Shown: piece after piece, positions 4,645 through 54,610 of the stretch
Layout: the number at the start of each line of letters is the position of its first letter
Position numbering within the stretch: the first letter of the stretch is position 1
Program-made: the position numbers and the translations under genes
Notes under the pieces: model-generated
Database searches by the model: none
Seen by the model: only the letters and a program-made list of their open reading frames with translations
Told to the model about the DNA's origin: nothing
DNA from: a virus
Direction: 5' to 3' (one strand)
Virus record (IMG/VR): IMGVR_UViG_3300020213_000031
Length of the DNA stretch: 64,000 bases

Positions 4645-5218
4645 CACCAGATTTCTACCTGCTATATTTTCGTCTTGACCTGATAGGTCGTGCATCCGAG
4701 CACAAGTGATTTCCCTGGTTGGGAGTTGGAATGGAGTTCGATTCTCCGTTCCGGTCATGTCGGAGCCTATCGGGTCATTTTCTTCTTGCACATCACGATA
4801 AAACAATTGCGAACTTAGCGACGCGTGGATAGAGATACTCGGTTTGGTATTCTGGGAGTCGATCCCCGGCGAGTGTTGCAACTTTCTCAAATAACGCGTA
4901 GTGCCGATGCCTCTAGGTGGGTAGCTTCCAGCGAGGGCAAAGGCGCTTTGGGCAGTAAGGCAACTGCAAATTGTCCTTGGATACTTTGGGGTTCGACTCC
5001 CCTCCAACGCTAAGTTCATTTTCTTCTAGCATTTAATCACCATTATGATATGACCTACTTCTTCGTAGGTCGCGTGGAGCGGCTAACCCCTCGCCTGATA
5101 AGTGAGGCTCGACCATGTATTAAGAAAATTCGAATGTAGGGGCGACCACCTTGAAACTCGATAAGCCTAAACCTTTGGTCGGGTAGAGGCACTCCACACT
5201 AATTTTAAGGAGGCATTT

Positions 5219-5605
5219 GTGAGCAGACCTTTGTTCAAAGCAATCGAGTTGACCGTGATAGAAGCGCTTGAAGGTGTAAAGATCACCATCAAGGATTGGC
5301 GCGAGCTTGAGGACGACGAAAAAATGGTTGCCCTTTTGCTGGCATCAAATTTTGTCGGCCCCTTCGTAGACAAGTTGCAGGAATATTCCGGCTACCCAAC
5401 AGAGCTGATCGAGAAAACGTATAAGATTGCTCAAGAGAATAAAATTTGGGAAGGCGATAAAGTCACATCTTATAACCAAGAAGCGGGTAGCGCCTTGCTC
5501 GTCATTCACAGTTTGATCATGACAGGCATTGTTGAGCAAGTCGTGGAGAATGGTCAAGATAGGCTTTTAAACTCGCTCGATACGAAACCAGAAATCTTTT
5601 GCTAG
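5219..5605 (+). CDS. hypothetical protein
   Basis: ORF with GGAGG RBS upstream; no motif. Confidence 0.4.
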   Translation: MSRPLFKAIELTVIEALEGVKITIKDWRELEDDEKMVALLLASNFVGPFVDKLQEYSGYPTELIEKTYKIAQENKIWEGDKVTSYNQEAGSALLVIHSLIMTGIVEQVVENGQDRLLNSLDTKPEIFC

Positions 5606-5614
5606 GGAGATAAA

Positions 5615-6031
5615 ATGAATATTGCTCTTACATCGATAGGTATTTGGCTCGTGTTCTTTTTTGGTTGGCAATTGCGTGAGGAGTCAGTCAAGAGAATGCT
5701 CACGTCGTGGGATTTGGGTTCTCCGATTTTCTTTCTTTCGTTCGGAATGTTTGCCGCGATGGAACATCCAAGTTTCAGGGAGAGGGATCATATTGGATTG
5801 ATGGTCCCCAGCCTTCGAGTGGTTGAGGATTGGCGAAAAAGTTTTGGTTTTCTTTGGGTGCGCGTTGGGGTGAGAGACATGGGCGAGGCAGACATGTACC
5901 TTTACTACGAAAGAATTCACGCGATGGTGGAGGCGAGATATGCAACGATGGGTGAAAATTCGCGGGAAAATGAGACCATCGATCGAGTATCTAAAGACCC
6001 TCAAGACTATCCCCCATGCGGACACGCTTGA
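5615..6031 (+). CDS. hypothetical membrane protein
   Basis: Two N-terminal hydrophobic helices. Confidence 0.35.
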   Translation: MNIALTSIGIWLVFFFGWQLREESVKRMLTSWDLGSPIFFLSFGMFAAMEHPSFRERDHIGLMVPSLRVVEDWRKSFGFLWVRVGVRDMGEADMYLYYERIHAMVEARYATMGENSRENETIDRVSKDPQDYPPCGHA

Positions 6032-9470: not shown

Positions 9471-10079
9471 ATGAGGAAAACACCAAAAGAAATCCGTAAA
9501 ACTTTAAAAGAGCATTATCACAAGAAAAACGGCTGCGAAGGAAAAAGAAAGTATCTTGATGAAAGCTCAGCACAGTCTCGCGCCGCTTACGACAAGCAAC
9601 GGTTCAAAGGCCACAAGCGCAAAGGCGAAGAGGCCCACAGGCCGTATCGTTGCGTTTTCTGCACCTACTGGCATATAGGCACGCCGACGAACCCAAATTA
9701 CCGTCAGGACTTCAAAGAAGTCGTGGAAAAGGCCCAGCTCATTCACGCTGGAGTCCCGATCTTTCGCCCTGAGCGCAATCTCCCTCGTCCAGACCTCTCC
9801 AGCCTCTATCTAAAAGGTTTACTAAAGAAGGAAAATTTGATTCATGGAGAATATTATATCGGATATTGCAAGTTCGCAGTCGTCGCTCGTTGGCACAGCG
9901 AAAATGGGCTATTCTACTATCAGACAGACGGGCGCGAGAATTCGCGCCCACACCCAGCGGACGATATCGGCGGAGATATATTCACCCCCGTCGACAAAAT
10001 CCAGCCAACACGAAATCAGCGCGTATATGAAGCGTTCGGGGAAGCCCATCCGATTGAAAGGCCCAGATTTAATCCCTGA
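9471..10079 (+). CDS. hypothetical protein with CxxC...H motif (PYRCVFCTYWH)
   Basis: ORF; possible zinc-binding motif. Confidence 0.4.
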   Translation: MRKTPKEIRKTLKEHYHKKNGCEGKRKYLDESSAQSRAAYDKQRFKGHKRKGEEAHRPYRCVFCTYWHIGTPTNPNYRQDFKEVVEKAQLIHAGVPIFRPERNLPRPDLSSLYLKGLLKKENLIHGEYYIGYCKFAVVARWHSENGLFYYQTDGRENSRPHPADDIGGDIFTPVDKIQPTRNQRVYEAFGEAHPIERPRFNP

Positions 10080-10346: not shown

Positions 10347-11063
10347 CTAAATAGGAAATCCAGCTTTCCTGAGTTTCTTTCTTAAATCTTCAGGCGCCTT
10401 AATTTTTTCAACAGCTTTCCAGATGTCTTTTAGAATCATTCGACGCATTTTTGTGTCAGACTTCCAGATTTTCAAATTTGTTCTTACCTGCGCCACATAG
10501 TCGGCAAAAACATCTCCAGAAATATCTTCGATTGGTGTGTGATTTATCCCAGCTACTCGATACCGAAGTTCTGCCAAGAGCTGCTCAAGGTGTGGTTTGT
10601 GTTCGATCATCGTGTTTGGATATTTCTTATCCCAACGGCTCCGACCTCTAGCATATTTTTGTAGAAGTTGAATGACGTGAACAAACTCATGATCGTACAT
10701 ACCGCGAAGCGCGTTAAAATATCTTCGAGCGTCTGGGGCATTCGTCGGCGTGGGGAGCGGTCTTATCGTGAGAGAAATAAATTCTTTATGTAGGTTTGTT
10801 TCTTTGTGGTGGAGGACTTGACCATCGAAACCAGGAGGCAAATCCTCGTAGTCGAAAACGAGTCCAATCTCTCGTGGAAATGTCAACCAAAGCTCTTCCA
10901 TTCTTTTTCTTGGTCCAGGCTTTTCGAATTGCGCTAATTTTCGCACTTTCGCTGGAACGCTGTGAGCAAATAGATCGTAGTAAAAATTAAATCCAACGTC
11001 GTAAATTTTTCTTATGGTTTTGTTCTTGAGAACATTTCTAAGGACTGATGGATTTTTTCTCAT
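10347..11063 (-). CDS. putative Zn-dependent metallopeptidase
   Basis: HExxH motif (DHEFVHVIQ). Confidence 0.5.
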   Translation of the reverse strand: MRKNPSVLRNVLKNKTIRKIYDVGFNFYYDLFAHSVPAKVRKLAQFEKPGPRKRMEELWLTFPREIGLVFDYEDLPPGFDGQVLHHKETNLHKEFISLTIRPLPTPTNAPDARRYFNALRGMYDHEFVHVIQLLQKYARGRSRWDKKYPNTMIEHKPHLEQLLAELRYRVAGINHTPIEDISGDVFADYVAQVRTNLKIWKSDTKMRRMILKDIWKAVEKIKAPEDLRKKLRKAGFPI

Positions 11064-14069: not shown

Positions 14070-14741
14070 TCAAATGTTTTTGATTCTGATGAGGGTGGCC
14101 GTGGCGTAAGCCCACTGGCGAGGACCAAAATCTTTTTCTTTCATTTTGAATTTGCGCTGAGTCGATCGAACGGCTCGGCGTTTTTTCATCTCATCGGCTT
14201 TGGTTTTAACGTAGCGGTCGATACCAAGCCCTGGCTTCTTTGGGTTCTTTTTTCGCTTCTTGGGATTGGCGGCCACGAAATCATTCATTACGATTTCTTT
14301 AGTGTCGGCGCCGCTCGGCAAGAGGATGTCATCAGTATAATCATCGGTGGCATCATCGGTCGCAGCGGAAGTGGCCGGATAAACTTTCAGCGAAATTCTA
14401 TCGTCATCAGCTTTTCCATAAAGCCTGTGAAGGTATTTAATTTCGTCAGCGCTGAATTTTCGGTAGGGTTTCTTGAACCTGTATTCAGCGATCCTTACAG
14501 CGTCGTCAAAGAGGAAATCTTTATTGGCTGGATTGCCCTCTTCTTCAATGCCGAACATTTCGTCCCAGCATTTCGGGCAAGTTTGGGAAATGAACATTTC
14601 CCGCAATTCCGGCGACAGTTTAGGAAATGCGTCTTGAACGTGCTTTCCGCTTTCCCATTCTTTCAGTCCTTTTTCGGGAACAGATACAGCAATGGGTTTT
14701 TTGCAATAGTGGCAGGGAATTTTAAGTTTCAAGATTTTCAT
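14070..14741 (-). CDS. zinc-ribbon protein with basic C-terminal tail, hypothetical
   Basis: CHYCKK...CPKCWDE plus K/R-rich C-terminus. Confidence 0.4.
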   Translation of the reverse strand: MKILKLKIPCHYCKKPIAVSVPEKGLKEWESGKHVQDAFPKLSPELREMFISQTCPKCWDEMFGIEEEGNPANKDFLFDDAVRIAEYRFKKPYRKFSADEIKYLHRLYGKADDDRISLKVYPATSAATDDATDDYTDDILLPSGADTKEIVMNDFVAANPKKRKKNPKKPGLGIDRYVKTKADEMKKRRAVRSTQRKFKMKEKDFGPRQWAYATATLIRIKNI

Positions 14742-14975
14742 CAGTTTAACCGATCCTTGTCCTTCACATCTTGGGCTTCTCTGCTTATGATGTGTTCAGC
14801 TAGAAGATCATTTTGTTTCTCTTCCAGGTAATTCGCTACCGCTTTCACGGCTGCGTTATAAATTTCGTCGTCATCCTTCAGAGTCCTCGTTGACCGCAGG
14901 AGCGTTATCAAGCTCTGAAGCTCAATATACAGCTTTTCGTCATCAGGGAAAACAAGGATAGTAAGTTCCGACACA

Positions 14976-15203
14976 CTACCTCCGTCGAACAAACCTCTCA
15001 ACGATGAATGCGGCGAATACACTGCCGGTTACCATGACAGCGATCTGCGCCCAAGGCGTTCTGATCGTGCTGGTTTTAGTCTCCAAGACTTCTACTCGTT
15101 TGGCGAGTTCTTTGTGCTCGTGAGGGCAGACGGGACAATTTGCAGGATCTTCACCAAATCCGCGATTGGCGTGCTCCATCATGTGGTGGGATTTGATATC
15201 CAT
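14976..15203 (-). CDS. small protein with C-terminal TM helix (lysis-accessory candidate)
   Basis: CxxC + C-terminal hydrophobic helix; adjacent to M15 peptidase. Confidence 0.3.
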   Translation of the reverse strand: MDIKSHHMMEHANRGFGEDPANCPVCPHEHKELAKRVEVLETKTSTIRTPWAQIAVMVTGSVFAAFIVERFVRRR

Positions 15204-15460
15204 TACTTACCTCGCTCAAGCGACTGAATGCGACCTTCGTGACTGTAAATTACTTTCGTTTGCTCGTCTTGCTTACTTTTGATCGACTCATTGTCTTTCG
15301 AAGTGACGGCGATTCGCTCAACAACGGAACCCATTTGAATGTTTAGCTGGGAAATATTCTTGTTCAAGTCTTGCAGCGTGTAGCCGATATAACTCGAGAT
15401 CACCGTCAGGGCGCCAAAGAATATAATTGGAACAACTTTTTCCCAAGCTAAAGATTTCAT
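15203..15460 (-). CDS. small N-terminal TM protein (holin/spanin-like candidate)
   Basis: N-terminal TM helix + coiled coil; immediately downstream of M15 peptidase. Confidence 0.35.
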   Translation of the reverse strand: MKSLAWEKVVPIIFFGALTVISSYIGYTLQDLNKNISQLNIQMGSVVERIAVTSKDNESIKSKQDEQTKVIYSHEGRIQSLERGK

Positions 15461-22881: not shown

Positions 22882-23709
22882 ATGGGTGACGCTAACGGAA
22901 ACAAATATGAGAAAATAGACTTACCGAAGGAACCGGCTAAAGCCCCTGTTCCCACAGCACCAGTTAAACCTGGTGAGAAGCCGGAAGATCCGAGCGTGAG
23001 AGTTCTCGGCATCGACGTAGCGAAATACCAGGACAAGCTAGATCCCACAGAGTGGGCGAAGCTTTACGCGAAGGGCTACCGCTTTGTGTTCGCCAAGGCC
23101 ACGGATGGGAAGGCTGGATTGGATTCGTATTACAGCTACCATCGCAAGAACGCGAAAGCAGCGGGGTTCCTGGTCGGGGCCTATCATTTCCTGCGTTACG
23201 GATACACGGCTGAGGAGCAAGCATCTCACCATTTCAAAACAGCCGGAAGGGTATCAGGAGAACTCCCGAGCGTCCTTGACGTTGAGTGGGATCGTTACAC
23301 CCTCGACCAAAAGTACGGCAGCGACAAGCGCATGGACAAATGGGCCGAGAATCACGCCAAGAAGTACGTTGAAACCTTGATGCTACTCAACGGCGGAAAG
23401 AAACCAATCATATATACCAATGCGTACTTTTGGCCGGAGAAGTGTTCCTTCCCGGAATTCTGGAGCCAATTTCTCGTGTGGGTTCCCTCTTACTCCGACT
23501 CCCTCAACCCAGGAGGCAAGCACGTACTGGCTGACCTATCCCCTGCGGAAATCGCAAAAGCTGGCGCTGGTGTGAAAATTCCTAGTGGATGGAAGCAATG
23601 GAACTTTTGGCAAGACGACGACGATTTGGCGATTGGCGATGTGAAGGCGATTGACACCAACGTGTTTCGCGGATCGCTCGAAGACCTGCGAAAGATGGCA
23701 AATGCCTAA
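22882..23709 (+). CDS. GH25-family lysozyme (muramidase), endolysin candidate
   Basis: GIDVAKYQ...FAKATDGKAGLDSYY...GAYHF pattern. Confidence 0.7.
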   Translation: MGDANGNKYEKIDLPKEPAKAPVPTAPVKPGEKPEDPSVRVLGIDVAKYQDKLDPTEWAKLYAKGYRFVFAKATDGKAGLDSYYSYHRKNAKAAGFLVGAYHFLRYGYTAEEQASHHFKTAGRVSGELPSVLDVEWDRYTLDQKYGSDKRMDKWAENHAKKYVETLMLLNGGKKPIIYTNAYFWPEKCSFPEFWSQFLVWVPSYSDSLNPGGKHVLADLSPAEIAKAGAGVKIPSGWKQWNFWQDDDDLAIGDVKAIDTNVFRGSLEDLRKMANA

Positions 23710-25968: not shown

Positions 25969-26045
25969 GGCCCAGTAGCTCAGATGGTCAGAGCGGCTGT
26001 TTTCAACTCAGTGCGTCGCGGATTCGAATTCCGCCTGGGCCTCCA
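25969..26045 (+). tRNA. tRNA with anticodon UCA (opal/UGA-reading; tRNA-Sup or Trp/other-UCA), CCA encoded
   Basis: Perfect 7-bp acceptor GGCCCAG/CTGGGCC, D-arm GCTC-AGATGGTCA-GAGC, anticodon loop TTTCAAC (U33, A37), T-arm GCGGA-TTCGAAT-TCCGC, discriminator U, CCA. Confidence 0.8.
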
Positions 26046-26166
26046 TTTAACTCTGAGCGTCAATGCTCAGCAATTTTCTCAGTCACCACTTGCTTTTTCC
26101 TCAGTCGATGCCATCCTCTTTCTCAGAGAAGCATACAGCTTCTTTTTCAATAGGAAACCCTCCAAC

Positions 26167-27924
26167 ATGACGCAAAGACGCACCATTTCCGACGAACGCG
26201 ATGAAAAACGCTCCCTGGCGCATCTCCAGGCCACCCTGGACAGCGAAGAAGGCGAACTTGACGACCTGGATTACACCGAGGAAGAGGCTGAAGAGGCTCT
26301 AAAACCTGACCCCGTGGCGGTCAAAGCTGAACGCGGCATGGAAGAATTGTCTGTAGAGCAAATTATTGCCCGAGCAGAGTCCTCGGAAGAGTGGGATATC
26401 TTCGAAGACATCGGCGCCCACCTCGTTTCACGCGGCGATCAGGTCAAGTATTCGGTAAAACTGAACGGAGAACATCGGGCAACCATCCCTCATCCCTGTT
26501 CCTACGATTGGCTTCAGAAAAAATACGGTGGCGGCTCATACCACGTCACCCTTCGTTCCTACCTTTTTTCGAAAAAAGCAGGCGGCGGATACCTCAAATC
26601 GCAGTCCAAAATGGTCGCCAACCCAGCCGACGATGAAGCCGACGCCGACGCTCCACTTCCTACAACCCTCGCGGGCGTCATGCCAGCGCCAGAAAAGGCG
26701 GCCTCCCCCGTGGAAATGCTCTCCATCCTGCAATCGATGAACGAAAAAGCGCGTTCCGAGCAACGAGCTGAGATGGAACGCATTCGCGAGGAGAACCGGC
26801 TTCGAGAGGAGAGGCTTGAACGTGAAGCAAAGTCCAGAGAAGAACGTCTCGAGCGGGAAGCCAAGGAACGCGAATCGAAACGCGAGTCTGAAGGCTCTTC
26901 CACGATGATGATGCTCATGAAATTCATGGAGCAATCCAGCGTAGCCGCACGCGAAGCAGCCAATCGCCAGAATGAAATGCTGATCGCGCTCCTCACAAAG
27001 TCGCCGCCTCCAGAGCGAGAAGACAAAAAAACCGACAAACTCTTCGACATGCTTCTCGGTGTGATGCTCGACAAGAAAGCAAAAGGCGATTCTCTCGATC
27101 CGTTGGAACTTCAGAAGTTGCTCAGCGCCGCAGAGGATAAGGGGTATTCCCGAGCGAAAGAAATTCGTGAGCTTGCGCAAGAAGAAGCCGCACGCCTCTC
27201 CGCTCGTATGGGTGGTAAGGATGACGACGAGGATGACGAAGACGAAGAGCCAAAAGAGAAGTCGACGACCAAAATGCTTCTCGAAACCATCGCTCCGATG
27301 ATTTCGCAGTTTGCTCAAGGTGCGGCTCAGGCGCAAGCGCAGCCGCAGCCGGTTCGCAGAGCCTTGCCGCCTCAAATGCGTCGCCCGCTCCCCGCTCCCG
27401 GCCCGAATCCCAATATGCCAGCCAGACCCCCCGCCGCGCCCGCCGCTCCAGCCAGACTGCAAGCGGCGCCCGCTGGTGAGCATCCTGTAAAGGCTGCAAC
27501 TAATCCAGTGCAGCCCCAAAGACAAAGCCTCAACCAAGTAATGAACCAATCAAAACCGCAAGCGGTGAAAGCGACTATGAAGCCGACGAAGAAAGAAATT
27601 GTCTCCGAGACTGTAGTAAACAAGATCACGGCAGACCTGACTGCCAATTTCCTGACCGGAGGATACGATCCGGAGAAAACAGCGGACGCCGCGCTTGCGA
27701 GCTTGGCCGACTACAAGTTTGACGATGGAGCGAAAATTGACGCTGCTTGGCTTCTGACCAACTTCACGCTGGATGAAATGAAAGCTGTAGCCAAGGCCAA
27801 AGGAATGCCGGAAGCCATCAATGCCTACCTGGAGCGCTTCTACGAGCGCGTAAAGTACATTGAAGGCGCTCAAAAGATCCTTGAGGGTGGATCGCAGCCT
27901 GCCAGCACGCCAGATTCCGTCTAG
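26167..27924 (+). CDS. acidic, coiled-coil, Pro/Ala-rich virion-module protein (scaffold/internal-protein candidate)
   Basis: First gene of late module; REERLEREAK repeats, D/E-rich and PA-rich low-complexity segments. Confidence 0.45.
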   Translation: MTQRRTISDERDEKRSLAHLQATLDSEEGELDDLDYTEEEAEEALKPDPVAVKAERGMEELSVEQIIARAESSEEWDIFEDIGAHLVSRGDQVKYSVKLNGEHRATIPHPCSYDWLQKKYGGGSYHVTLRSYLFSKKAGGGYLKSQSKMVANPADDEADADAPLPTTLAGVMPAPEKAASPVEMLSILQSMNEKARSEQRAEMERIREENRLREERLEREAKSREERLEREAKERESKRESEGSSTMMMLMKFMEQSSVAAREAANRQNEMLIALLTKSPPPEREDKKTDKLFDMLLGVMLDKKAKGDSLDPLELQKLLSAAEDKGYSRAKEIRELAQEEAARLSARMGGKDDDEDDEDEEPKEKSTTKMLLETIAPMISQFAQGAAQAQAQPQPVRRALPPQMRRPLPAPGPNPNMPARPPAAPAAPARLQAAPAGEHPVKAATNPVQPQRQSLNQVMNQSKPQAVKATMKPTKKEIVSETVVNKITADLTANFLTGGYDPEKTADAALASLADYKFDDGAKIDAAWLLTNFTLDEMKAVAKAKGMPEAINAYLERFYERVKYIEGAQKILEGGSQPASTPDSV

Positions 27925-29809: not shown

Positions 29810-30244
29810 ATGCAATATGTAGTGCAAAACGGAGACACGCTCTCCGCCATTTCTCAAAAGTTTTACGGTTCGCCCAGCTATTACAGGGCGATCGTTGCCG
29901 CCAATCCAATTATTCAGAACGAGAATCTGATCCAAATTGGCTGGATGCTCGAAATTCCTGGCTCCGAATTGCTCGGTCCAATTCGCCCCGGCGACCCGAC
30001 GATGCGTCCGCCTGGAGTATCTTCAGGCTTCACGCCTTCACCATCGCCTTCTCCACAACCGCTTCCTTCGCCGTATGGCCCCGGAACCGTATTGCAGCCA
30101 ACACCAGCGCAAGAGTCGAAAACTAAACTTTATTTGCTCATTGCTGCCGCCCTTGTTGGTGGTTTCTTCATTGTGCAGTATCTTTCAAAACAACAGGCAG
30201 CTCCTAAAGAGAAGCCAACCGAACCGCAGGCGGAGGCCGTATGA
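29810..30244 (+). CDS. LysM-domain protein with Pro-rich linker and C-terminal TM anchor
   Basis: YVVQNGDTLSAISQKFYG...IVAANP LysM signature; TM LYLLIAAALVGGFFIV. Confidence 0.65.
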   Translation: MQYVVQNGDTLSAISQKFYGSPSYYRAIVAANPIIQNENLIQIGWMLEIPGSELLGPIRPGDPTMRPPGVSSGFTPSPSPSPQPLPSPYGPGTVLQPTPAQESKTKLYLLIAAALVGGFFIVQYLSKQQAAPKEKPTEPQAEAV

Positions 30245-30858
30245 TCAGGCAGATGGGCGATTTTGGAGCGGACGACGAAGTTTACATGATCCACGTGGTC
30301 GTGGCTGGCGACTCTTTGTCGAAGATTTCAAAAGAATGGTACGGCGATTATTCACACGTCCAAGAGATTGCCGACCTGAATGGGATCGCCAATATAAATA
30401 ATATCAAAGTAGGACAAGTCTTGAAGCTCAAGAATCCGCAGATTCCTGAAGACATGCCGATCAAGCCTGGGCCTCCCCATCAGAGTCCAATCCTTGTGCC
30501 ATTGCCACAGCCAGCCCCACCAACTTACGACCTTCCTTACACGAGGCCAATTACGTTGCCTGCGCCGCCCAAGGAAATTCCGTACACGCAGCCGATCACG
30601 CTCCCCGCGTTGCCGCCACCCACGTCGGGCGTCCCCACGCCACCAGCCGCGTATGTGCCACCTAAGAATATTTCCATCATGGATTTTTTCCGCCAGGTGC
30701 CAACCCTCGCCGTGAAAAAATTCTTTGGTTTGACTGTGCTTCAATGGGCTGCGGTTACTGGTTTGGTTGGTTTGAGTATTGGGATGCTGACTTTAGGCAG
30801 CTCGAGAAAAACCGCGACGAATCCTAGACGGAAAAGAAACGCAATCCGGAGGAGATAA
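30241..30858 (+). CDS. LysM-domain protein with Pro-rich linker, TM anchor and basic NPRRKRN tail
   Basis: HVVVAGDSLSKISKEWYG...LKLKNP LysM signature; TM; C-terminal ATNPRRKRNAIRRR. Confidence 0.65.
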   Translation: MIRQMGDFGADDEVYMIHVVVAGDSLSKISKEWYGDYSHVQEIADLNGIANINNIKVGQVLKLKNPQIPEDMPIKPGPPHQSPILVPLPQPAPPTYDLPYTRPITLPAPPKEIPYTQPITLPALPPPTSGVPTPPAAYVPPKNISIMDFFRQVPTLAVKKFFGLTVLQWAAVTGLVGLSIGMLTLGSSRKTATNPRRKRNAIRRR

Positions 30859-31919
30859 TGCACTTTCTCAGCAATGTCGCTTTTGGCGATGTCGAAAATT
30901 CGGACATGACCTCGACGATCAAGGACGTGAGCGATCGTATTGCTGCGTCTTCCAATTATCAGACTTGCGCTCCCGGACAACTCGTTTCTGAATACGCCTC
31001 AACCGATTTATCAAAAACCAAGCCAACGCTTGATTTTACTCTTCCAGAAGTAAAAGCGTATGAAGCGTGCGGGGACGAGCGAACGAGAAAGCTCGCCTCC
31101 CTTGTGATGAATCTCTCCGACGAGGACGCTGCCGCAAACTTGGCGAAGGTTGATGATATCGATGGGCTGATTCGCGACATCAATGATTTCAAAACCTACC
31201 TTCAGGTAAAAATTCAAACCACGAAGGGTCTGACAACGCCGCAGTTTGATTCTTGGTATTATGAGCAATACTGGGGAAACTGGACGCTCTATCGCAGAGC
31301 CTCTGGCTTGTTCGGCGCAGAAAGCGTCAAACGTGCAAACAAAAAACAAGCCTTAGCGCAACTCGTAAAATCTCAAGCGAGCTTTCAGCTTTCAACGCAA
31401 ATTCAAGATTTCTATCTGGACTTGTCGAAAAAATACGGTCCCAGATTTTCCTTGGGCGAGCAAAAGAAGCTAAAAGATTTCTTCGTCGATACGACTGTGT
31501 ACGAGTGGAAGATTGAAGACTTTCTGTCGGTGGGTCAGCTTTTGGAGCGAGAACTCACACACGAGGACGTAGCGAAATATTATATGTACGTTCCGATGGC
31601 GGTGACGGGTTACTACTTCGAAGGAAAGGATAAATCTCCGACCGATTATGTGGCAAGAGTGAAAGAGTTCTCGGACGCTGCAAAAAGAGCGCTAACTTCT
31701 TTCATTGGCCCGCTTAATGGTGCTACAGCAATTTCGATGGACACCGCTTCCAAGATCGCGCAAAAGTGTAACAACGATGCCACCTGCATCGCGAATCACT
31801 TCCGCGACGTGGCCGCTGGCGCTGTGGAGCCAGTTGGTGATAAAGTAGGCGTAAGCGCTGGCACCGTTGTCTTTGTAGCCGCCACAACCTTTGTTTTATG
31901 GAAATTTCTTAAAAAGTAG
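30858..31919 (+). CDS. C-terminally membrane-anchored virion-module protein
   Basis: TAATG overlap; C-terminal TM VVFVAATTFVLWKFL. Confidence 0.45.
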   Translation: MHFLSNVAFGDVENSDMTSTIKDVSDRIAASSNYQTCAPGQLVSEYASTDLSKTKPTLDFTLPEVKAYEACGDERTRKLASLVMNLSDEDAAANLAKVDDIDGLIRDINDFKTYLQVKIQTTKGLTTPQFDSWYYEQYWGNWTLYRRASGLFGAESVKRANKKQALAQLVKSQASFQLSTQIQDFYLDLSKKYGPRFSLGEQKKLKDFFVDTTVYEWKIEDFLSVGQLLERELTHEDVAKYYMYVPMAVTGYYFEGKDKSPTDYVARVKEFSDAAKRALTSFIGPLNGATAISMDTASKIAQKCNNDATCIANHFRDVAAGAVEPVGDKVGVSAGTVVFVAATTFVLWKFLKK

Positions 31920-33261: not shown

Positions 33262-34281
33262 ATGAATCTTATTAATCTCGTTCTGCTTGGCCTTGGAGCC
33301 AAAGTTCTGCTTTCCAAGAGCGCACCCGTTCAAGCGAAAGCAATCGCTCCTTCTGGCAGCACCCTCGACCCCGCAACGAGCGGTGAGCTGTCTGTCGCTC
33401 CGTCGCCCTATGCGCCGAATGCCGCTCTTCCGAGTTCCAAAGACCCCTACAAGCGTCCTCCCACGGCTGTTCATGCTGGTGAAAATTGGGGCGACGACAA
33501 ACGCGCCCGCGAACGTGCCCTTCACAAGGCGCCGCTTTCTGCTGACTACGTTCCCGATTACAACGAGATGTATGAGGAAAAATACGGCGCCGACGCTCTC
33601 GCTGCTGAATCCGCTCCCCTTACTGTTGGCGGGAAGTCCGTGCAGCTCGAACGTCTGAACGAAGTCGCCAAACGTGCCTCATCTCGCGAGCGTGCCGCTC
33701 AGATTCGTGAACAGCGGATCGCCATGGATTACGACGAGAATGATGTATCGGTGGCAGAAGACGGCGGCATTGAATTGCACAAATATCGCCAATCTCGCGC
33801 CCTCGTGGCAGATGTAAATAAAGACGCGGCCATGGATGCTCGCTCCAGGGCAATCGAGATGGCTGAAGATGCTCAAGTGATTCGTGAGAACAGGAATCGG
33901 TCTGCGGCTCATGGTCGCGATATCGAACGTTCCATTCGCAGAGACATCGACCCCAACCTCGATATGGCTTTTCAACAAGGTTATCGCGGTCAGATGGGTG
34001 GAACTTTCACGAAAAATCCTGAAATGGGGTTTGCTGACGCTCAGCCTGTTTCTTTCCGCGAGGGGAATTTTGATCAGTCGGAAGTAGTCGCTTCTACTCC
34101 CTTCAACAATGCTCTTCGCTATGAAGACCTTTATGCGAAAGGTCAGGCCGATTGGCCTCTCGTTTCTCAGCAGAAGGATATGAATTCTGACTTTGCTGGA
34201 GTTCTCGTAAACGAGGCCGGTTCGGCAGATTTCTCGCACGACATTGTGTACGATGTGAAAGAAGATTTCGGGAGACGCTAA
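33262..34281 (+). CDS. N-terminal-TM virion-module protein
   Basis: N-terminal TM; charged helical body. Confidence 0.45.
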   Translation: MNLINLVLLGLGAKVLLSKSAPVQAKAIAPSGSTLDPATSGELSVAPSPYAPNAALPSSKDPYKRPPTAVHAGENWGDDKRARERALHKAPLSADYVPDYNEMYEEKYGADALAAESAPLTVGGKSVQLERLNEVAKRASSRERAAQIREQRIAMDYDENDVSVAEDGGIELHKYRQSRALVADVNKDAAMDARSRAIEMAEDAQVIRENRNRSAAHGRDIERSIRRDIDPNLDMAFQQGYRGQMGGTFTKNPEMGFADAQPVSFREGNFDQSEVVASTPFNNALRYEDLYAKGQADWPLVSQQKDMNSDFAGVLVNEAGSADFSHDIVYDVKEDFGRR

Positions 34282-35566: not shown

Positions 35567-35690
35567 GCCCAAATAGGCTGCCGGAGGGGTAAAAATGAAG
35601 TTGCAGTACGTTTTCGGAGCAAATCCAGCTCCTAGCAAAAAAAAGATAGGCACAAGAAAAAATTCTCGTAAAATTGGAAAAGGAGGTCAC

Positions 35691-37082
35691 ATGGCTAAAA
35701 AGAAAGCCTCGCCCGCTCAGCGTGCGTGGAGAAAAGAATTCGGACGCTTGGCTCGGGCAGGAAAGCTTGGCAAGGCAAACCCCAAGGGCAAAAAGCGCAA
35801 GAACCCTAAAGTCGTGGTTCGCGTAAAAAAAGAAATGCCTGAAGAGAGTCATACCCTCTCGTGGCCCAACAAGGCTGAAGTAGAAGCTGCACGCGAAGAG
35901 CGTGACGCTGCTCGCGCTCAATTGGCTGCCATGCAGTCTGAGTACGATAGTCTTTACTCCTCTCCCTTCTCCCGCGATTTCGTGCTCAGCAAGAGCAAGA
36001 AAAACTATAGCGGATCAACCAATAAACTTGTGGCTGTAGAAAAGAAACTTGCCGCTCTCGAGCGCAAAGTTACAACGGCCAAAGAAAAATATGAAGAGCT
36101 TGTTACCAAGCGGAAAGGGACTATCGTGAGCAAGAAGAATTCCGGCAAAAAGCGCCGTAAACATAAGAGAAACCCAGGAAATCCTGATTACGGAATTATC
36201 GTTGCCGGTAATCCCAAGAAGAAAAAAGCCAAGAAGAAAAAAGCCAAAAAGAAAAAGGCTAAAAAGGCTAAAAAGCGCTCTTACAAGCGTAAATCCAAGC
36301 GTCGTAAGGCCCTCAAGGCTCTTCCGATGGTGATGAGCCACTCTTTCCCTCTCAGCAAAAAGCGTAAAGCTGGAATCTCTCGCAGACGCCGTTTGCGTGC
36401 AAAAGTTTCCATCGGCAACCCAGGCTCCGCAAAAGACATGCTCATGAAGTATGGCGTTGTGGCTCTGGCTGGTGCTGCGTACCCTTGGTACAACTACGCG
36501 ATCAAGCGCTTCATCGTGAAGGGTCTTGACGATCTGACGAAAGGTGCCGTAAGCCGCTTCCTCGGCCCCATCGACGCAAAAGTTCCGGGCGTAACTGCTC
36601 CCGGTATCGCTCTTGCTGTTGTGCTCGGTCTGAAGATCGCTGACGACAAATGGTCGTTCATGAAGAAGCTTGGCGCTCAAGCTGACATGGCCGAACAGGT
36701 ATTGGACACCATGGGCATCCTCGCCGCAGCCGAACTTGGCCGCGTAGGAGCTGCTTACGCCAAGATCGACCCCGTTGGGGCTGGTATGAGCGGCGTGGAC
36801 TTCTATCCTTCCAGCATGGCTGGTGCAGACTTTGGTTATCTGACCGATGGCTACCGTCAACGCGCTGGCGATTTCGGAAATGTGAAGTTCTTCCCTGCCG
36901 GTATGGCTGGAGTGGAATTTTATCCTCCCGGATCGCAAGGCGACCAAATGTATGTTCCTTCGATGAGGGATCAACTGCGCGAAGCCGAAGGCTTGGGCGA
37001 GACTCCCGAAATGGGCGGAATCCCCGAAGGCTTGGGCGAAATCCCTGAAGGCATGGGCGAAGACCCAGGCCAAATGGGCTAA
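35691..37082 (+). CDS. lysine-rich highly basic protein (DNA-binding/internal core protein candidate)
   Basis: AAGGAGGT RBS before ATG 35691; KKKKAKKKKAKKKKAKKAKKRSYKRKSKRRK tract. Confidence 0.5.
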   Translation: MAKKKASPAQRAWRKEFGRLARAGKLGKANPKGKKRKNPKVVVRVKKEMPEESHTLSWPNKAEVEAAREERDAARAQLAAMQSEYDSLYSSPFSRDFVLSKSKKNYSGSTNKLVAVEKKLAALERKVTTAKEKYEELVTKRKGTIVSKKNSGKKRRKHKRNPGNPDYGIIVAGNPKKKKAKKKKAKKKKAKKAKKRSYKRKSKRRKALKALPMVMSHSFPLSKKRKAGISRRRRLRAKVSIGNPGSAKDMLMKYGVVALAGAAYPWYNYAIKRFIVKGLDDLTKGAVSRFLGPIDAKVPGVTAPGIALAVVLGLKIADDKWSFMKKLGAQADMAEQVLDTMGILAAAELGRVGAAYAKIDPVGAGMSGVDFYPSSMAGADFGYLTDGYRQRAGDFGNVKFFPAGMAGVEFYPPGSQGDQMYVPSMRDQLREAEGLGETPEMGGIPEGLGEIPEGMGEDPGQMG

Positions 37083-40098: not shown

Positions 40099-41337
40099 AT
40101 GGCGTCAGCAGCAGTAAATACACAGCGGCTTTTGGAGACTTTCCACGGTATTCAGGGCGGACGCTACGACCCTTCCGTTCAAAGCACTCAGGGTAGCGCT
40201 GGCACGATTTTTATTCAGTTGCCGCCCTTTGGTCTAAGCACTCCGTTTGCCTTGTGGCAAAAACAAGACAATGGAAACACAACCAATTGGGCTGAGATTT
40301 CCGCCAGCTCGACGGGAATTACTGATTACAAAGCGCCAGTAAACCTTGCATCCACGGCAGACGTTCCGCTCTCTGGTGGCGCCGCTCTGTTGATTGATGG
40401 TGTAGCCGTAGCCAACGGCAATCGCATCTTGCTCAAAGACCAAGCCACTGCAAGCCAAAACGGAATTTACATCGCCAGCGGAATCGGCACGGCTTATCTC
40501 TTGACTCGCGCTCCTGACGCAAATACTTCGGCTGAAGTTACACAAGGTATGTTTACCTGGGTGATGTTCGGCTCCACGAACCTCGAGACCGGCTGGATTT
40601 TGACCACGCCGAACCCGATCACGCTTGGCACGACTGCGTTGACGTTTGTGGAGATTCCGATTCCTGGTCTAACATCTGTTGGAGCATTCGACACACAGCC
40701 GCCTTCGGTTGATGGTGCCGTAATTGTTGGTAGCAGTATTTTCTTTCAATCCATGAATGGCGGCGCAAGCCCTGTGGGGATGCTGAATTCTGGTTCACAA
40801 AACCTTGTCGGCGATAAGAGCTTCTCTCAGCCTATCCAGTTTTTCAACCAGGGCGTAACACCACCATCTCCCGCAGGTGGCACGGCGGAAATTTATTCCA
40901 ACGTTTCCGAATTGATGGAGCAACAAGACTCCGCAGGAAATATTCGCATCGTAAACGGTATCGTCCAAGACACAGCCGTGGACATCGTTACGGCTCCAGC
41001 ATTCATCAACTTCATTGGCGCAAACTCTGTTGTAGCGAACGGTCTTGGCGTCGATGTCGACGTGACGGCTGCGGTTGGAGCAACTTGGGATCGCGAAACG
41101 TTCGTTATCGCGGCGCCCGACATTGTAAACGGCTACCTCGATCTCGCCAACACAGCAATCGATGATTCCGTAAATCCGACTCCCCAAGGTTCCGGCCCCC
41201 TCATCGGCGGCTCGATCGCGGCGGGTGACGACTTTGAAATGTCGATCGTCGGCCCAATTACTCGTGTGACCTTCTCTCCAGCCGTAGTGGCTGCCTGGGT
41301 TGTTGGTCAAAGAGTTCAAGTTCAGTACCAGTTTTAA
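40099..41337 (+). CDS. fiber/receptor-binding-like virion protein
   Basis: Ser/Thr/Gly/Ala/Asn-rich beta composition; position in fiber block. Confidence 0.4.
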   Translation: MASAAVNTQRLLETFHGIQGGRYDPSVQSTQGSAGTIFIQLPPFGLSTPFALWQKQDNGNTTNWAEISASSTGITDYKAPVNLASTADVPLSGGAALLIDGVAVANGNRILLKDQATASQNGIYIASGIGTAYLLTRAPDANTSAEVTQGMFTWVMFGSTNLETGWILTTPNPITLGTTALTFVEIPIPGLTSVGAFDTQPPSVDGAVIVGSSIFFQSMNGGASPVGMLNSGSQNLVGDKSFSQPIQFFNQGVTPPSPAGGTAEIYSNVSELMEQQDSAGNIRIVNGIVQDTAVDIVTAPAFINFIGANSVVANGLGVDVDVTAAVGATWDRETFVIAAPDIVNGYLDLANTAIDDSVNPTPQGSGPLIGGSIAAGDDFEMSIVGPITRVTFSPAVVAAWVVGQRVQVQYQF

Positions 41338-50968: not shown

Positions 50969-51769
50969 CTATTCGCTCACTACGGCTGCGTTGACGGTCT
51001 TGCCATCAGTGATGATCGTCTTAGGGAGCGGTCCTTCTTGCCCGTCGATCCGACCCGTAAGGAAACGACTTTCATTCACGCCCGGACGAGCGTGCTGGAG
51101 CAGCGTCATCGTCATTTCGTGCAGGTTCTTGGTGTGGACGGAGCCATTCTGGTTCATCTCGGCCATGGCTTTCGTCATGCGATCGTAATGCTGCTGAGCC
51201 TCTTGTTGCTTCACCTGAGAGATGGCTTCAGCGTTGCGCTTCTCGAGGTCGGCAACGGCTTTAACTTTTTCGTTCTCTACAGCGGCCACACGCTTGTCGG
51301 CTTCGAGCTGAATTTTGGCGACCTTTTGTTCGGATTCGAGTTTTGCCAAGGTCGTTACCTTGTCGACCTCTAGCTTGGTCGTCTCTTCGAGCATCTTTTT
51401 ATTGCGATCGAATTCGTCTTTGAGGTTGGATTCCTTGATTTTGAAATCGTTCTGCTGAGTCAGGATGCGGCGAGAAAAATCGGCTTCCTGATCTTTGAGC
51501 TTTTGCGTAAATTCCGCCTCACGCTGTTTGAGCGTGATATCAAAATCAGACTCTTTATTCTTGAGCGTCAGCCCTTGTGTTTCGATCAACGCCCTCATCC
51601 TCAGACGTTCTTTCATAAAAAACAGCATCGTTTTCTCCTCTTTCGGTTTTGAGAGCTTTGGCGGCTCTCGTTTAATCCTGTAATCGCTAAGGTCGTCAAA
51701 AATGTTCGCCCAAAGTCGCCTAATCACCATTAGCATTTTCGCGATAAGATGCAAGAGAAAATCGATCAT
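50969..51769 (-). CDS. coiled-coil hypothetical protein
   Basis: Long heptad-rich K/E sequence; start may be internal. Confidence 0.35.
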   Translation of the reverse strand: MIDFLLHLIAKMLMVIRRLWANIFDDLSDYRIKREPPKLSKPKEEKTMLFFMKERLRMRALIETQGLTLKNKESDFDITLKQREAEFTQKLKDQEADFSRRILTQQNDFKIKESNLKDEFDRNKKMLEETTKLEVDKVTTLAKLESEQKVAKIQLEADKRVAAVENEKVKAVADLEKRNAEAISQVKQQEAQQHYDRMTKAMAEMNQNGSVHTKNLHEMTMTLLQHARPGVNESRFLTGRIDGQEGPLPKTIITDGKTVNAAVVSE

Positions 51770-51794: not shown

Positions 51795-52975
51795 TTGACC
51801 TCCTCCCCATGCCTAAAGGCAGGGGATTCCCTTAAGCGACGTTAGCCGCTCTTAGCGTATCAAGTCCGATACGGAGGATATTTTTTGCGGCGTTAACATC
51901 TCTGTCGTGTTGACAGGAACACTCGCTGCAAATCCATCCTCTAATTCCAAGACCACTTGGTCCGCTCGGTCCAGTCTTTTTAAGACAAGAAGAGCAAGTG
52001 ATCGTAGAAGCAAACTCTGATACATCAACAACCAACCCCTGGTGCCTTATGGCTTTTTGCTTCAGGATCTGGCGGAACATTCCGGTAGATGCATCTTGTG
52101 AACTTTTACCATGCGACGCTTGCAGGAACTTCCCGCTTACGTCGCCAACAAATATTGTTTTATACTTTCTGGCTAACTCCAAAGTTTTCTTGTGCAGAAA
52201 GTCTTTGCGGATATTTTTAATCTTTGCAGACAGCTTTTGCGCCTGTCTTTTCTTTCGGTGTCTCTGAAAACCGGCCAGCTTATTCTCATGCTTTAAAAAG
52301 ATTCTAGGGTTTTCAACTTTGCTACCGTCGCTTAACACAGCGATATCTTTCAATCCTAAATCAACCCCAACAGCGTCGATTGCGTGGCTTGTTTCGATAG
52401 TGGGAGTTTCAGCGACTAAGTTAATATACCAGTGGCCCCGAGCATCTTGCGAGAAGGAGCCGCACTTGATCTTACCTGGCAGGTCCCGTGACTTCCAGAA
52501 CTTGAAAGCTTGCTTGGCGTAGGTAGCTTTATTGCCATCAATTTTTACACCGGTTGCTTTAAAGGGCACCCAGCCTAGAGACTTCTTTGACCCGCTAGAT
52601 GCCCGCCAGCGAAGTTTTCTCTTCTTAAATTGTATTCTGCGGGTTGCGTACTCTTCTCCAATCGCCTGAACTGTTTGCGAATGAAGCCCTATCTCTTTCC
52701 CGGCACCTGCGGTCAAGTAGTTGAGGTCAAAACCAGATAGGAAGTCCGAGTGATTTCTAATGGCGTTGAAGCTTGTTTCGTTGCAGAAATTCCACACAAA
52801 GTTAACCGATTTAGAAAGGGCAGAAAGCTTTCTACAAGAGAACCCTCCCTTAATTCGGTAGCGATATGTTAACATCATGGAAGCCTTGTAACGTACAATG
52901 TCGATAGAGTCAAGAAGGAAGTACGCCTTATATCCCCACGCCTAAAGGCGGGGGTTTTACGGCGGCGCTGATAAA
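51795..52975 (-). mobile_element. IS200/IS605-family element carrying only tnpB (IS1341-like); boundaries approximate
   Basis: Imperfect subterminal hairpins CCCCATGCC-TAAA-GGCAGGGG (51805-51825) and CCCCACGCC-TAAA-GGCGGGGG (52934-52954) flank tnpB. Confidence 0.6.
51832..52878 (-). CDS. tnpB: TnpB (IS605 OrfB) RuvC-like RNA-guided nuclease
   Basis: RuvC-I GVDLGLKDIAV, RuvC-II-like FVGDVS, zinc finger CSSC...CSECSC, RuvC-III HDRDVNAAKNI. Confidence 0.8.
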   Translation of the reverse strand: MMLTYRYRIKGGFSCRKLSALSKSVNFVWNFCNETSFNAIRNHSDFLSGFDLNYLTAGAGKEIGLHSQTVQAIGEEYATRRIQFKKRKLRWRASSGSKKSLGWVPFKATGVKIDGNKATYAKQAFKFWKSRDLPGKIKCGSFSQDARGHWYINLVAETPTIETSHAIDAVGVDLGLKDIAVLSDGSKVENPRIFLKHENKLAGFQRHRKKRQAQKLSAKIKNIRKDFLHKKTLELARKYKTIFVGDVSGKFLQASHGKSSQDASTGMFRQILKQKAIRHQGLVVDVSEFASTITCSSCLKKTGPSGPSGLGIRGWICSECSCQHDRDVNAAKNILRIGLDTLRAANVA

Positions 52976-53161: not shown

Positions 53162-53458
53162 TCATAAAATATTCCAATCCTCACGAGAGGAGAAGTCTTC
53201 ATGCGTCCTGATTTTAATGGCTAGAGTCTCTATCGCAGGAACAAACAAGGCTTGATTTTCCTGCGCCCTAGAGAACCATCGCATCACGCGAACGTACACA
53301 GACAACTTCTCGTGATGCCCAAAACGCTTGATTTTTCGAATGGCGGCGTCATGCCACTCATCCGATCCAACGGGGAACGTAATCTTGGCAATCTCTTTGG
53401 CTGTATCGAAATAGTTGGAACAGCATTCCTCGGGACTACGTTTGATGTCGAGTTTCAC
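53162..53458 (-). CDS. hypothetical protein
   Basis: ORF only. Confidence 0.35.
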   Translation of the reverse strand: MKLDIKRSPEECCSNYFDTAKEIAKITFPVGSDEWHDAAIRKIKRFGHHEKLSVYVRVMRWFSRAQENQALFVPAIETLAIKIRTHEDFSSREDWNIL

Positions 53459-53712
53459 TTCTTTACCATTGAATCGCGACCGTCGATGTACGCCGTTCGC
53501 TGGTTGATGTTAATCTCGGTTGCGAGACCCAAGAGATTTGCCATCGTTCCACCAGTGGCGTGTGCTGATGCGCCGGTTGAATGATTGACGGCCAGGATAA
53601 ACTGATAGCCCTTTGCTTGGAGCAGCTCACCAAAAGGGATGATGAGGTCTTCAAGCTCTTTTTCTTGTTCGTTGCGGAGGTCTTTTTCGATTCGCTCATT
53701 TTGAAATGCTCC

Positions 53713-53907
53713 TTAAATCTTGATCGACTCAATATCCCGATCGAAAATTGTCTTTCGACCGTCTTTCCTCGCGTTCTCAATCGCTTTATCGAGAACAACC
53801 CTGATGAGATTGGACAAGGCTTCTGGCGCCGCTCCGCTCGTGTTCATGCTGCCCTTGTTCTTGATGTATGCTTTCACCTTTGAAACCGTGACCAAAACTT
53901 CGCTCAT
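53713..53907 (-). CDS. histone-fold protein (archaeal/bacterial HMfB/HBb-like histone)
   Basis: 64 aa; ...LSNLIRVVLDKAIENARKDGRKTIFDRDIE aligns to the histone-fold L2/alpha3 signature A..AGRKT...DIE; AAGGAG RBS. Confidence 0.55.
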   Translation of the reverse strand: MSEVLVTVSKVKAYIKNKGSMNTSGAAPEALSNLIRVVLDKAIENARKDGRKTIFDRDIESIKI

Positions 53908-53924
53908 TGTCCTTCTCCTTTGTT

Positions 53925-54370
53925 AATGGTGTACCCGGCGAGAATCGAACTCGCGTCCTAAAGTTTTTTCATTCTACAGTCGACATGTTTTTGCGCCCAA
54001 GGCGACACCGAAGTGTCGGGTGGAGATTAAAATCTAGGGGTCTTTCAACCCCCAGACCAGGGCGACCGATTTCTCGGCCACCTCCACCAACCAGATTCTT
54101 ACGATAAGCTCTGGCAAGCTCCCTGCACTTTCCTTCTTGCGAAGTGGACTGCACTACCATTTTTGCCTTTCTTCTTTAACTGGCGCTCAGGCGGCACCAC
54201 AGTCTTCCGTTTTTAGGCGGCGAACTGAAGAGCCGTAGCATTGCTGCCACGGTTCTTGCGAATCACGAAAGATTCAGCATTTACATTTGCGTCCAGATGA
54301 TAACTCAACAAGTACGCCTCTGAGACATGCAGTAGAATTTCCAAACTCCAGTCGAAACCAATTCGGGCAC
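53925..54370 (-). ncRNA. ssrA: tmRNA (ssrA)
   Basis: 5' GUGCCCGAAUUGGUUUCGACUGG and 3' GGACGCGAGUUCGAUUCUCGCCGGGUACACCA match the tmRNA tRNA-like domain; acceptor GUGCCCG/CGGGUAC pairs; internal ORF ending ...ALQFAA-stop. Confidence 0.85.
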
Positions 54371-54610
54371 TTTTAAAATCAACTGAAGAGAGAAGTACCG
54401 GCTGCTCTTAACGCTGGGCCAGCGCAGAGCTTGGCTTGACTCGCATTAATCTTGTACTTCAAAAACCGAACTCTCAAATTGCCTCGATCGACCACCTGCC
54501 GGTCCTCGACCAAACCAACTGCAAGCACTTCTTCTCTCCTCAATTCATTTCAAAATCGTCTAAACACCATTAACATTTCCAAAAAAATAAGCAAGAAATA
54601 TTTCTTACTT

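Follow-up and report, generated by a model that had tools for sequence, protein, structure and literature searches.

The locus analysed here raises the question of whether a very short open reading frame (ORF), lying directly behind a transfer-messenger RNA (tmRNA) gene on a contig classed as viral, encodes a histone and, if so, what such a gene is doing in that position. The contig is IMG/VR record IMGVR_UViG_3300020213_000031, and the whole stretch of 64,000 nucleotides that was analysed is called the window below. A preliminary description, made from the sequence alone, had reported a 64-aa ORF with a strong AAGGAG ribosome-binding site and had interpreted it as a virus-encoded minimal histone, joined to a tmRNA transcription unit in a way not described before. 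Our analysis makes it likely that the ORF is a functional, virus-borne histone of the HBb/Bd0055 type, a protein that would form dimers and bend or coat DNA, would be co-transcribed with the tmRNA and would have an architectural role for the phage genome.

A histone gene of the bacterial dimer type

The ORF is found exactly where it had been placed (53713..53907, minus strand), with its ATG at 53907 and a TAA stop codon at 53715-53713, and its product is MSEVLVTVSKVKAYIKNKGSMNTSGAAPEALSNLIRVVLDKAIENARKDGRKTIFDRDIESIKI. The Shine-Dalgarno sequence AAGGAG is equally confirmed, at 53920-53915, 7 nt ahead of the ATG, and the gene is present as a single copy within the window. In a phmmer search of the PDB, the product matched HBb (Bd0055) of Bdellovibrio bacteriovorus (8fvx, 8cmp, 9ezz and 9f0e) with an E-value of 2e-12; the alignment covers residues 1-59 without gaps at 53% identity, and the two proteins share their numbering. 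Further matches were Leptospira HLp (3e-6), Thermococcus HTkC (7e-5) and HmvA (2e-4). Pfam family PF00808 (CBFD_NFYB_HMF), which the preliminary description had proposed as a check, was indeed matched, over residues 29-60 only, but with 18.3 bits (E 0.0028) the match does not reach the gathering score of 21.4. The HBb chains in the PDB carry the PF00808 name, and two of the homologues have precomputed PF00808/PF00125 matches, while a PHROGs search with the histone rendered nothing useful.

Structure prediction points in the same direction. An AlphaFold2 model of the monomer, based on an alignment of 26 family members and with a mean predicted local distance difference test (pLDDT) score of 88.4, has helices at residues 3-19 (alpha1), 27-48 (alpha2) and 56-60 (alpha3), after which four non-helical residues end the protein. 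The predicted structure is a histone fold with a short alpha2 and an alpha3 cut to about one turn, the two features that define the alpha3 histones (PMC11390915). When the model was compared with the PDB by Foldseek, the five best matches were all HBb chains, with template modelling (TM) scores of 0.73-0.80 and 52% identity, followed by HLp and HTkC and then almost only by archaeal or eukaryotic histones and histone-fold proteins. The histone claim therefore stands: the sequence search returns histones, the model of the monomer shows the three-helix fold with HBb, HLp and HTkC as its closest structures, and neither of the results named beforehand as fatal to the claim (no significant histone-fold hit, a different predicted fold) was obtained.

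The residues that matter for DNA binding are largely those of HBb. N22, R57, S9, T53, T8, S24, K10, K12, K52 and K16 make most of the DNA contacts in HBb (PMC11317129), and nine of these ten are identical in the 64-aa protein, the exception being a change of T8 to V. The RKTxxxxD motif is kept as R51-K52-T53...D58, as are the alpha1 lysines K10, K12 and K16. At position 48, where archaeal histones have a tetramerisation His (H49 of HMfB) and HBb has A48 (PMC10627809), the window protein has K and not H, and on this sequence evidence it should not be able to form archaeal-type tetramers or hypernucleosomes. Sequence, fold and motifs together assign the protein to the HBb/Bd0055 "bacterial dimer" histones, a category defined through sequence clustering (PMC11390915). 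The alternative of a nucleosomal archaeal histone of the HMfB type was considered and rejected, given that alpha3 makes one turn instead of three, that residue 48 is K, and that HMfA/B match weakly both in the phmmer search of the PDB (E about 0.3) and in structure (TM 0.55-0.65).

With a variant that is 95% identical in DNA, the ORF shows 8 synonymous differences and 1 non-synonymous difference in 60 codons, a ratio of non-synonymous to synonymous substitution rates (dN/dS) of 0.03, and with a 67%-identical relative dN/dS is 0.135; as read from these comparisons, the ORF is under strong purifying selection. We give practically no chance to the idea that it is spurious, a non-coding stretch behind the tmRNA. 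The shortness of the ORF (64 aa) and the Pfam match under threshold could be taken in its favour, but the PDB sequence match to solved histones, the confident AlphaFold2 model, the Foldseek matches and the excess of synonymous changes rule it out, and the strong Shine-Dalgarno site also speaks against it.

The family comprises 31 other histone homologues, of 61-74 aa each. Bacterial homologues occur at at least 496 genome loci, mostly in Bdellovibrionota and also in Chlamydiota, Planctomycetota and others, in a conserved context in which the histone gene lies between genes for an arginine decarboxylase and NifU, followed by M16 peptidases. The resemblance to Bdellovibrionota histones noted in the preliminary description is real: besides the 53% identity to HBb, the window histone is 64-69% identical to histones of Bdellovibrionota metagenome-assembled genomes (MAGs). 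The sequences AAPEAL and TVFDRDIE are common to the histones of the window, of P0002, P0003 and P0006, and of a 98%-identical variant. In a simple neighbour-joining tree, built from short sequences and without bootstrap, the phage-type histones group together to the exclusion of all others, and the branches next to them are histones of Bdellovibrionales/Oligoflexia MAGs. On the basis of these sequence relationships, the phage lineage most likely acquired its histone from a histone-bearing host related to Bdellovibrionota. The host assignment is weak, however, since it depends on sequences of about 60 aa in a tree without bootstrap and since one near-identical contig has been binned as Saccharibacteria. 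This contig (L013, CAZQGQ010000007.1, 5.3 kb) is a fragment with a 98%-identical tmRNA-histone region, deposited in a "Candidatus Saccharibacteria" MAG, into which a viral sequence has most likely been binned by mistake. The same study (SRP128246) also contributed a Bdellovibrionales MAG that has a histone of its own (L038).

The tmRNA and its pairing with the histone gene

The presence of a tmRNA just before the histone ORF is borne out by Rfam. The gene comprises 444 nt on the minus strand (54370->53927) and matches RF00023 over its full length (model positions 1-374) at 67.2 bits, where the gathering score is 47 (E 5e-24). It has an encoded CCA end, and its acceptor stem consists of the pairs G1-C, U2-A, G3-U, C4-G, C5-G, C6-G and G7-C, including therefore the G3:U70 pair that tmRNAs require for alanylation. 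The tag frame (54213..54278, minus strand) starts with the resume codon GCU at 54278 and continues with AESFVIRKNRGSNATALQFAA up to a UAA. From these features, the tmRNA looks functional. Its tag is unusually long, with 21 residues ending in QFAA, and its pseudoknot region has 148 nt where the RF00023 model has 55 positions. ARAGORN, when run on the window, did not call the tmRNA at 53927-54370, and surveys of phage tmRNAs based on this program would overlook tmRNAs of this type.

The distance between the CCA end of the tmRNA and the ATG of the histone gene is 19 nt (53908..53926, minus strand) and not 18 nt as first reported. This spacer holds the Shine-Dalgarno AAGGAG, has no hairpin and is too short for a canonical promoter; in the 98%-identical variant it also has 19 nt, with 2 substitutions.

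The pairing of the two genes was followed in three groups of phage-type loci, namely the window type (L002, L003 and L093), a 98% type (L013, L094 and L095) and a 67% type (L007-L009 and L097). A tmRNA lies upstream of the histone gene in all three groups, that is, at 100%, 98% and 67% histone identity, and it directly adjoins the histone gene in the window type and in the 98% variant. In L007, a 51-kb virus-like contig that has in common with the window a DUF5661 gene and a 339-aa protein with 40% identity, the two genes are separated by 416 nt, filled by a 138-codon ORF (9588-10004) that starts 3 nt past the CCA end and whose stop codon overlaps the histone ATG (ATGA). The product of this ORF has CxxC...H...CxxC motifs, HNH-like by eye, with no Pfam match. 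The arrangement suggests that the tmRNA and histone genes once lay close together and that the ORF was inserted between them later, perhaps as a homing endonuclease. The tmRNAs of L007 and the window are homologous, with compensatory changes at 4 acceptor-stem pairs and conservation of the G3:U pair, and the L007 tag, DESVVIRKSRSSNAPALAFAA, is equal in length to that of the window and has the ...FAA end in common with it.

The histones have diverged by about 33% in amino-acid sequence and the small genes around them have been exchanged, yet the pairing has persisted. A fixed partner gene on the downstream side of the histone was also looked for and discarded, the downstream genes being different in the window lineage and in L007. 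No tmRNA was found in an Rfam scan of 21 bacterial histone loci (L010, L011 and L014-L032), nor at any of 80 genome loci analysed with ARAGORN, which misses the window tmRNA; joint capture of tmRNA and histone from a bacterial genome was rejected on these grounds. The tmRNA-histone pairing is therefore specific to one virus lineage, in which it has been kept over considerable divergence, and is not universal. We could not find a description of a conserved tmRNA adjacency of a viral histone gene in the literature, and this is the new element of the locus.

With regard to transcription, a 19-nt spacer (3 nt in L007) is too small to contain a promoter, so that transcription of the histone message must begin either within the tmRNA gene or ahead of it. 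An AT-rich, terminator-like hairpin of 9 bp followed by U7 lies at the end of an upstream gene of 92 aa (54610-54581, minus strand), and has an L007 counterpart with compensatory changes, although the z scores of -1.7 and -2.4 are modest; a consensus terminator scan does not report the hairpin at 54581..54610. The conserved AT-rich stretch after this hairpin may be the promoter site of the tmRNA-histone unit. No terminator-like hairpin was found between the tmRNA and the histone gene or just past the latter. Taking together the 19-nt spacing and the conserved synteny, we infer that co-transcription followed by processing of the tmRNA 3' end is the simplest reading. The histone gene would be transcribed with the tmRNA from a start just past the upstream hairpin and its product would hence be made in quantity, and 3'-end processing of the tmRNA would set free the histone mRNA, whose leader of 19 nt would carry the Shine-Dalgarno sequence. 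Between the hairpin with its AT-rich element and the tmRNA there are some 165 nt (54379-54543, minus strand) that are found in the window and the 98% variant only and are absent in L007; they contain a possible ORF of 49-54 aa with a GAGGAG site ahead of a GTG.

It can also be the case that the adjacency is incidental, the histone gene being unrelated cargo that either has a promoter of its own, which could lie within the 3' portion of the tmRNA gene, or is expressed along with the other genes of a long early operon. We regard this as a possibility to be taken seriously, though on the whole doubtful. Several observations weigh in this direction and against co-transcription as a maintained arrangement. 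The tmRNA-bearing lineages are related phages, so that the synteny may simply be inherited; in L098, a contig of the P0006 type, the 1.25 kb ahead of the histone gene contain no tmRNA, and this together with the intervening ORF of L007 means that the link is not obligatory. A promoter within the 3' portion of the tmRNA gene is conceivable, given a -10-like hexamer (TAGAAT/TAAAAT) that can be seen by eye in this region in both lineages, and the scan of the window for promoter and terminator consensus sequences gave counts no higher than in shuffled sequence. Moreover, neither the tmRNA nor the histone is known to require the other. On the other hand, the spacer of 19 nt holds nothing but a Shine-Dalgarno site, the arrangement of the L007 ORF resembles an insertion into a pair that was once tight, and the pairing has survived the divergence of the histone amid flanking genes that did not persist.

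The carrying element and the proposed role of the histone

Loci nearly identical to that of the window occur in six or more samples, including a 67.9-kb contig of the Joint Genome Institute (JGI), and the European Nucleotide Archive record of one of them gives a microbial-mat metagenome as its source. The window encodes a protein-primed family-B DNA polymerase (pPolB; 2263-4644, plus strand; PF03175, E 5e-29) that is 25-28% identical to the polymerases of the tectiviral Bam35/GIL16/AP50 group and of archaeal spherical viruses, and a polymerase of this kind implies a linear genome with terminal proteins. Other products of phage type are an endolysin (22882-23709, E 1e-19), a protein with a peptidoglycan-binding domain (30241-30858), a tail-fibre/Ig-like protein (40099-41337, PHROG matches with E 1e-24) and a 1087-aa protein with similarity to phrog_5596 (E 7e-40), as well as members of GP88 (E 1.5e-42), DUF5661, MazG-type pyrophosphatases and phrog_200. 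No cellular housekeeping family was found among roughly 60 ORFs scanned in the 64 kb. The element is virus-like and probably represents a highly divergent phage lineage, so that "virus-encoded" holds as far as accessory phage genes go, although genes for capsid, portal and terminase were looked for and not recognised.

This last point weighs against a viral nature, and it was pursued in several ways. Capsid, portal and terminase were missing from the Pfam and PHROGs matches of about 40 ORFs, from a PDB sequence search with the proteins of 646, 495 and 353 aa, and from profile and Pfam searches with an 11-member alignment of the 585-aa protein; the AlphaFold2 model of a 339-aa candidate capsid protein had a pLDDT of 53, was mostly coiled coil and was unusable. 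Phage databases, in which the preliminary description had suggested looking for homologues, were equally unproductive: GenBank phages rendered no match by megablast of 24 kb or by tblastn of the histone and the 1087-aa protein, and the IMG/VR copy searched rendered no relative by an alignment-based scan or a degenerate DNA pattern. The contig might accordingly be a bacterial region, a prophage remnant, a plasmid or an integrative element bearing a pPolB, in which case histone and tmRNA would effectively be host genes, and the binning of the 98%-identical fragment (L013) in a MAG and the presence of an IS605-type TnpB could be added in support. Genes for tmRNA are, besides, classic integration sites of mobile elements. 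We nevertheless find a non-viral origin rather improbable, since no housekeeping family accompanies the endolysin, the tail-fibre-like protein and the other PHROG families, since the bacterial homologues lie in a different, conserved chromosomal context that lacks a tmRNA, since the tmRNA itself is atypical (missed by ARAGORN, with a large insertion and a 21-residue tag), and since the contig recurs at about 68 kb.

As for the function of the protein, HBb contacts DNA and bends it (PMC11317129), has also been described to coat straight DNA end-on (PMC10627809), binds the whole genome without specificity in DNA affinity purification sequencing (DAP-seq) experiments (PMC11317129), and has been reported to be essential in its bacterium (PMC11317129, PMC10627809). 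By analogy, a homodimer of the window histone would use its L1/L2 loops and the start of alpha1 to hold the DNA backbone across the minor groove, without sequence specificity, and would then bend or coat the DNA. The most likely role would be that of an architectural protein which the phage would provide abundantly for the replicating or packaged form of its genome. The target could alternatively be the host nucleoid, on which the histone would act alone or as a heterodimer with a host histone.

This alternative can be carried further, to an anti-host factor that would pair with the essential histone of the host or compete with it for DNA and would in this way disrupt the nucleoid; a sequence-specific regulator of phage genes may be considered along with it. 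Mixed dimers are conceivable in view of the 64-69% identity to Bdellovibrionota-like histones and the very similar alpha2 core, the substitutions of the phage clade cluster away from the DNA contacts (AAPEAL at 26-31, F55, E60 and a different C-terminal tail), and HBb, as said, has been reported to be essential. Conserved DNA binding is, however, a better fit than a decoy to nine out of ten DNA contacts kept and to the very low dN/dS, and the binding of HBb in DAP-seq is genome-wide and non-specific (PMC11317129), all of which makes either of these roles unlikely. A more ambitious extension of the architectural role, for which we see only a slim chance, would take tmRNA and histone as a co-transcribed and co-selected module of protein-primed viruses that infect histone-bearing, Bdellovibrionota-like hosts, in which the histone would coat a linear genome capped by terminal proteins, by analogy with p6 of phage phi29. 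If module and genome coating were true, this would be the first histone serving the replication or packaging of a phage.

The histone gene belongs to a long array of small genes on the minus strand, from about 56.2 to 48.9 kb. Behind it in the array comes a gene (53455..53699, minus strand) that encodes 81 aa in the related contigs L001 and L006 and is frameshifted in the window, at a run of A at 53683-53687 that has five residues in the window, L002 and L005 and six in L001 and L006; the difference may be a population polymorphism, phase variation or an assembly error. A 98-aa ORF follows (53162..53458, minus strand; ORF call). In the region of 51832-52878 and 50969-51769 (both on the minus strand), the window shares with L001 and L003 an IS200/IS605-type TnpB (OrfB_IS605 and Cas12f1-like_TNB). 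This TnpB is absent from L002 and L004, in which the neighbouring gene encodes 304 aa instead of 266 aa, which suggests a recent polymorphism in the virus population due to insertion of an insertion sequence (IS).

The presumed structural block contains large plus-strand genes (25984-27924, 30858-31919, 33262-34281 and 35595-37082) with no detectable similarity in Pfam, PHROGs or PDB. The 585-aa product is rich in Pro, Glu and Arg and has coiled coils, a long coiled coil is predicted for the 339-aa protein, and a set of 5.8 billion proteins contains just 10-11 homologues of the products of this block. The window also has a tRNA gene with a UCA anticodon (25969-26045, plus strand), whose product is labelled "SeC" by ARAGORN, but has an ordinary cloverleaf length and scores 60.5 bits as a generic tRNA in Rfam; it looks like an opal (UGA) suppressor, and the longest ORF of the gene that follows begins inside it. 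Recoding of stop codons in the window was considered and dismissed, as the tests of ORF coverage and in-frame stops were negative or ambiguous, with no convincing read-through of TGA. One may speculate that a UGA suppressor and a tmRNA are connected when present in one element, as read-through makes non-stop ribosomes. In L007, the tmRNA is accompanied by a Ro60/TROVE protein (PF05731 and vWA_Ro60; 4116-5711), a fragment-like class-II tRNA-synthetase protein of the HisRS type (204 aa; 14714-15328) and a tRNA-Ile(GAU) (10954-11030), so that RNA-related genes are over-represented in this group of viruses; at Rfam gathering thresholds, L007 rendered no Y RNA.

Comparison with known systems

HBb is the closest known system. 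The window protein resembles it in length class, fold, RKTxxxxD motif, K10/K12/K16, nine of the ten contact residues and the lack of the tetramerisation His, and differs from it in the change of T8 to V, in the phage-clade signature (AAPEAL, F55 and E60) with its C-terminal tail IESIKI, and above all in being a 64-aa histone carried by a virus-like element, outside the conserved chromosomal context. The bacterial dimer category was described by Schwab et al. as exclusive to bacteria (PMC11390915). Liu et al., however, have described 84 histones resembling bacterial ones on IMG/VR contigs of Caudoviricetes, with a Bd0055-like cluster named BBVH, predicted to be a DNA-bending dimer and to belong to viruses of Pseudomonadota hosts (bioRxiv 10.1101/2024.12.06.627149). 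The claim that a virus-encoded histone of this kind had not been described was, consequently, too strong. The tmRNA is unmentioned in the preprint on BBVH (bioRxiv 10.1101/2024.12.06.627149). Like BBVH, the protein described here is a small Bd0055-like histone on a metagenomic contig, one that carries phage-type genes and may belong to Caudoviricetes, although no gene for a capsid, portal or terminase was recognised; unlike BBVH, with their predicted Pseudomonadota hosts, it has its nearest bacterial relatives in Bdellovibrionota MAGs.

The "phage histones" of Schwab et al. 2024 (A0A2E7QIQ9), or VTTH, are also phage-borne proteins with an alpha3-type histone fold, but their C terminus forms a long helix for tetramerisation, and RxTxxxxD is absent from them (PMC11390915). 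Membership of the window protein in this group was rejected, because it stops 4 residues after alpha3 and has R51, T53 and D58.

The histone call itself confirms a published category and its gain is modest; the conserved link to a tmRNA is the new part. Bacterial histones have been characterised only from 2023 on. A phage copy with the functional hallmarks demonstrates exchange of the HBb-type histone between cellular and viral genomes, and it amounts to a natural experiment on histone function. If the phage needs its own supply, coating by histone is probably required for the replication or packaging of DNA in such hosts. The interest of the locus would rise if tmRNA and histone were found on a single processed transcript, or if the histone were needed for protein-primed replication.

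Abundant DNA-bending proteins made by phages are represented by p6 of phi29 and TF1 of SPO1, which is of the HU type, and p6 coats a linear, protein-primed genome and opens its ends. The window histone would be comparable to p6 as a small, phage-encoded and non-specific DNA bender, probably abundant, on an element with a protein-primed PolB. Neither p6 nor HU has a histone fold and their folds are unrelated to it, so that the functional parallel is one of analogy only. With respect to the RNA partner, phage-encoded tmRNAs are already known, for example in huge phages (PMC7162821). The element described here differs from these in its size, of about 68 kb, some 4 kb of which lie outside the window. 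Its synteny of tmRNA and histone could serve as a marker for finding more phages of this kind. A precedent for the arrangement is provided by the thrU-tyrU-glyT-thrT-tufB operon of Escherichia coli, in which tRNAs and an mRNA are co-transcribed. In the window, too, a stable RNA lies closely ahead of a protein gene on the same strand, the partner here being a histone and its co-transcription inferred, and the placement behind the phage tmRNA suggests a similar expression strategy, in which the histone gene would ride on a strong promoter for a stable RNA.

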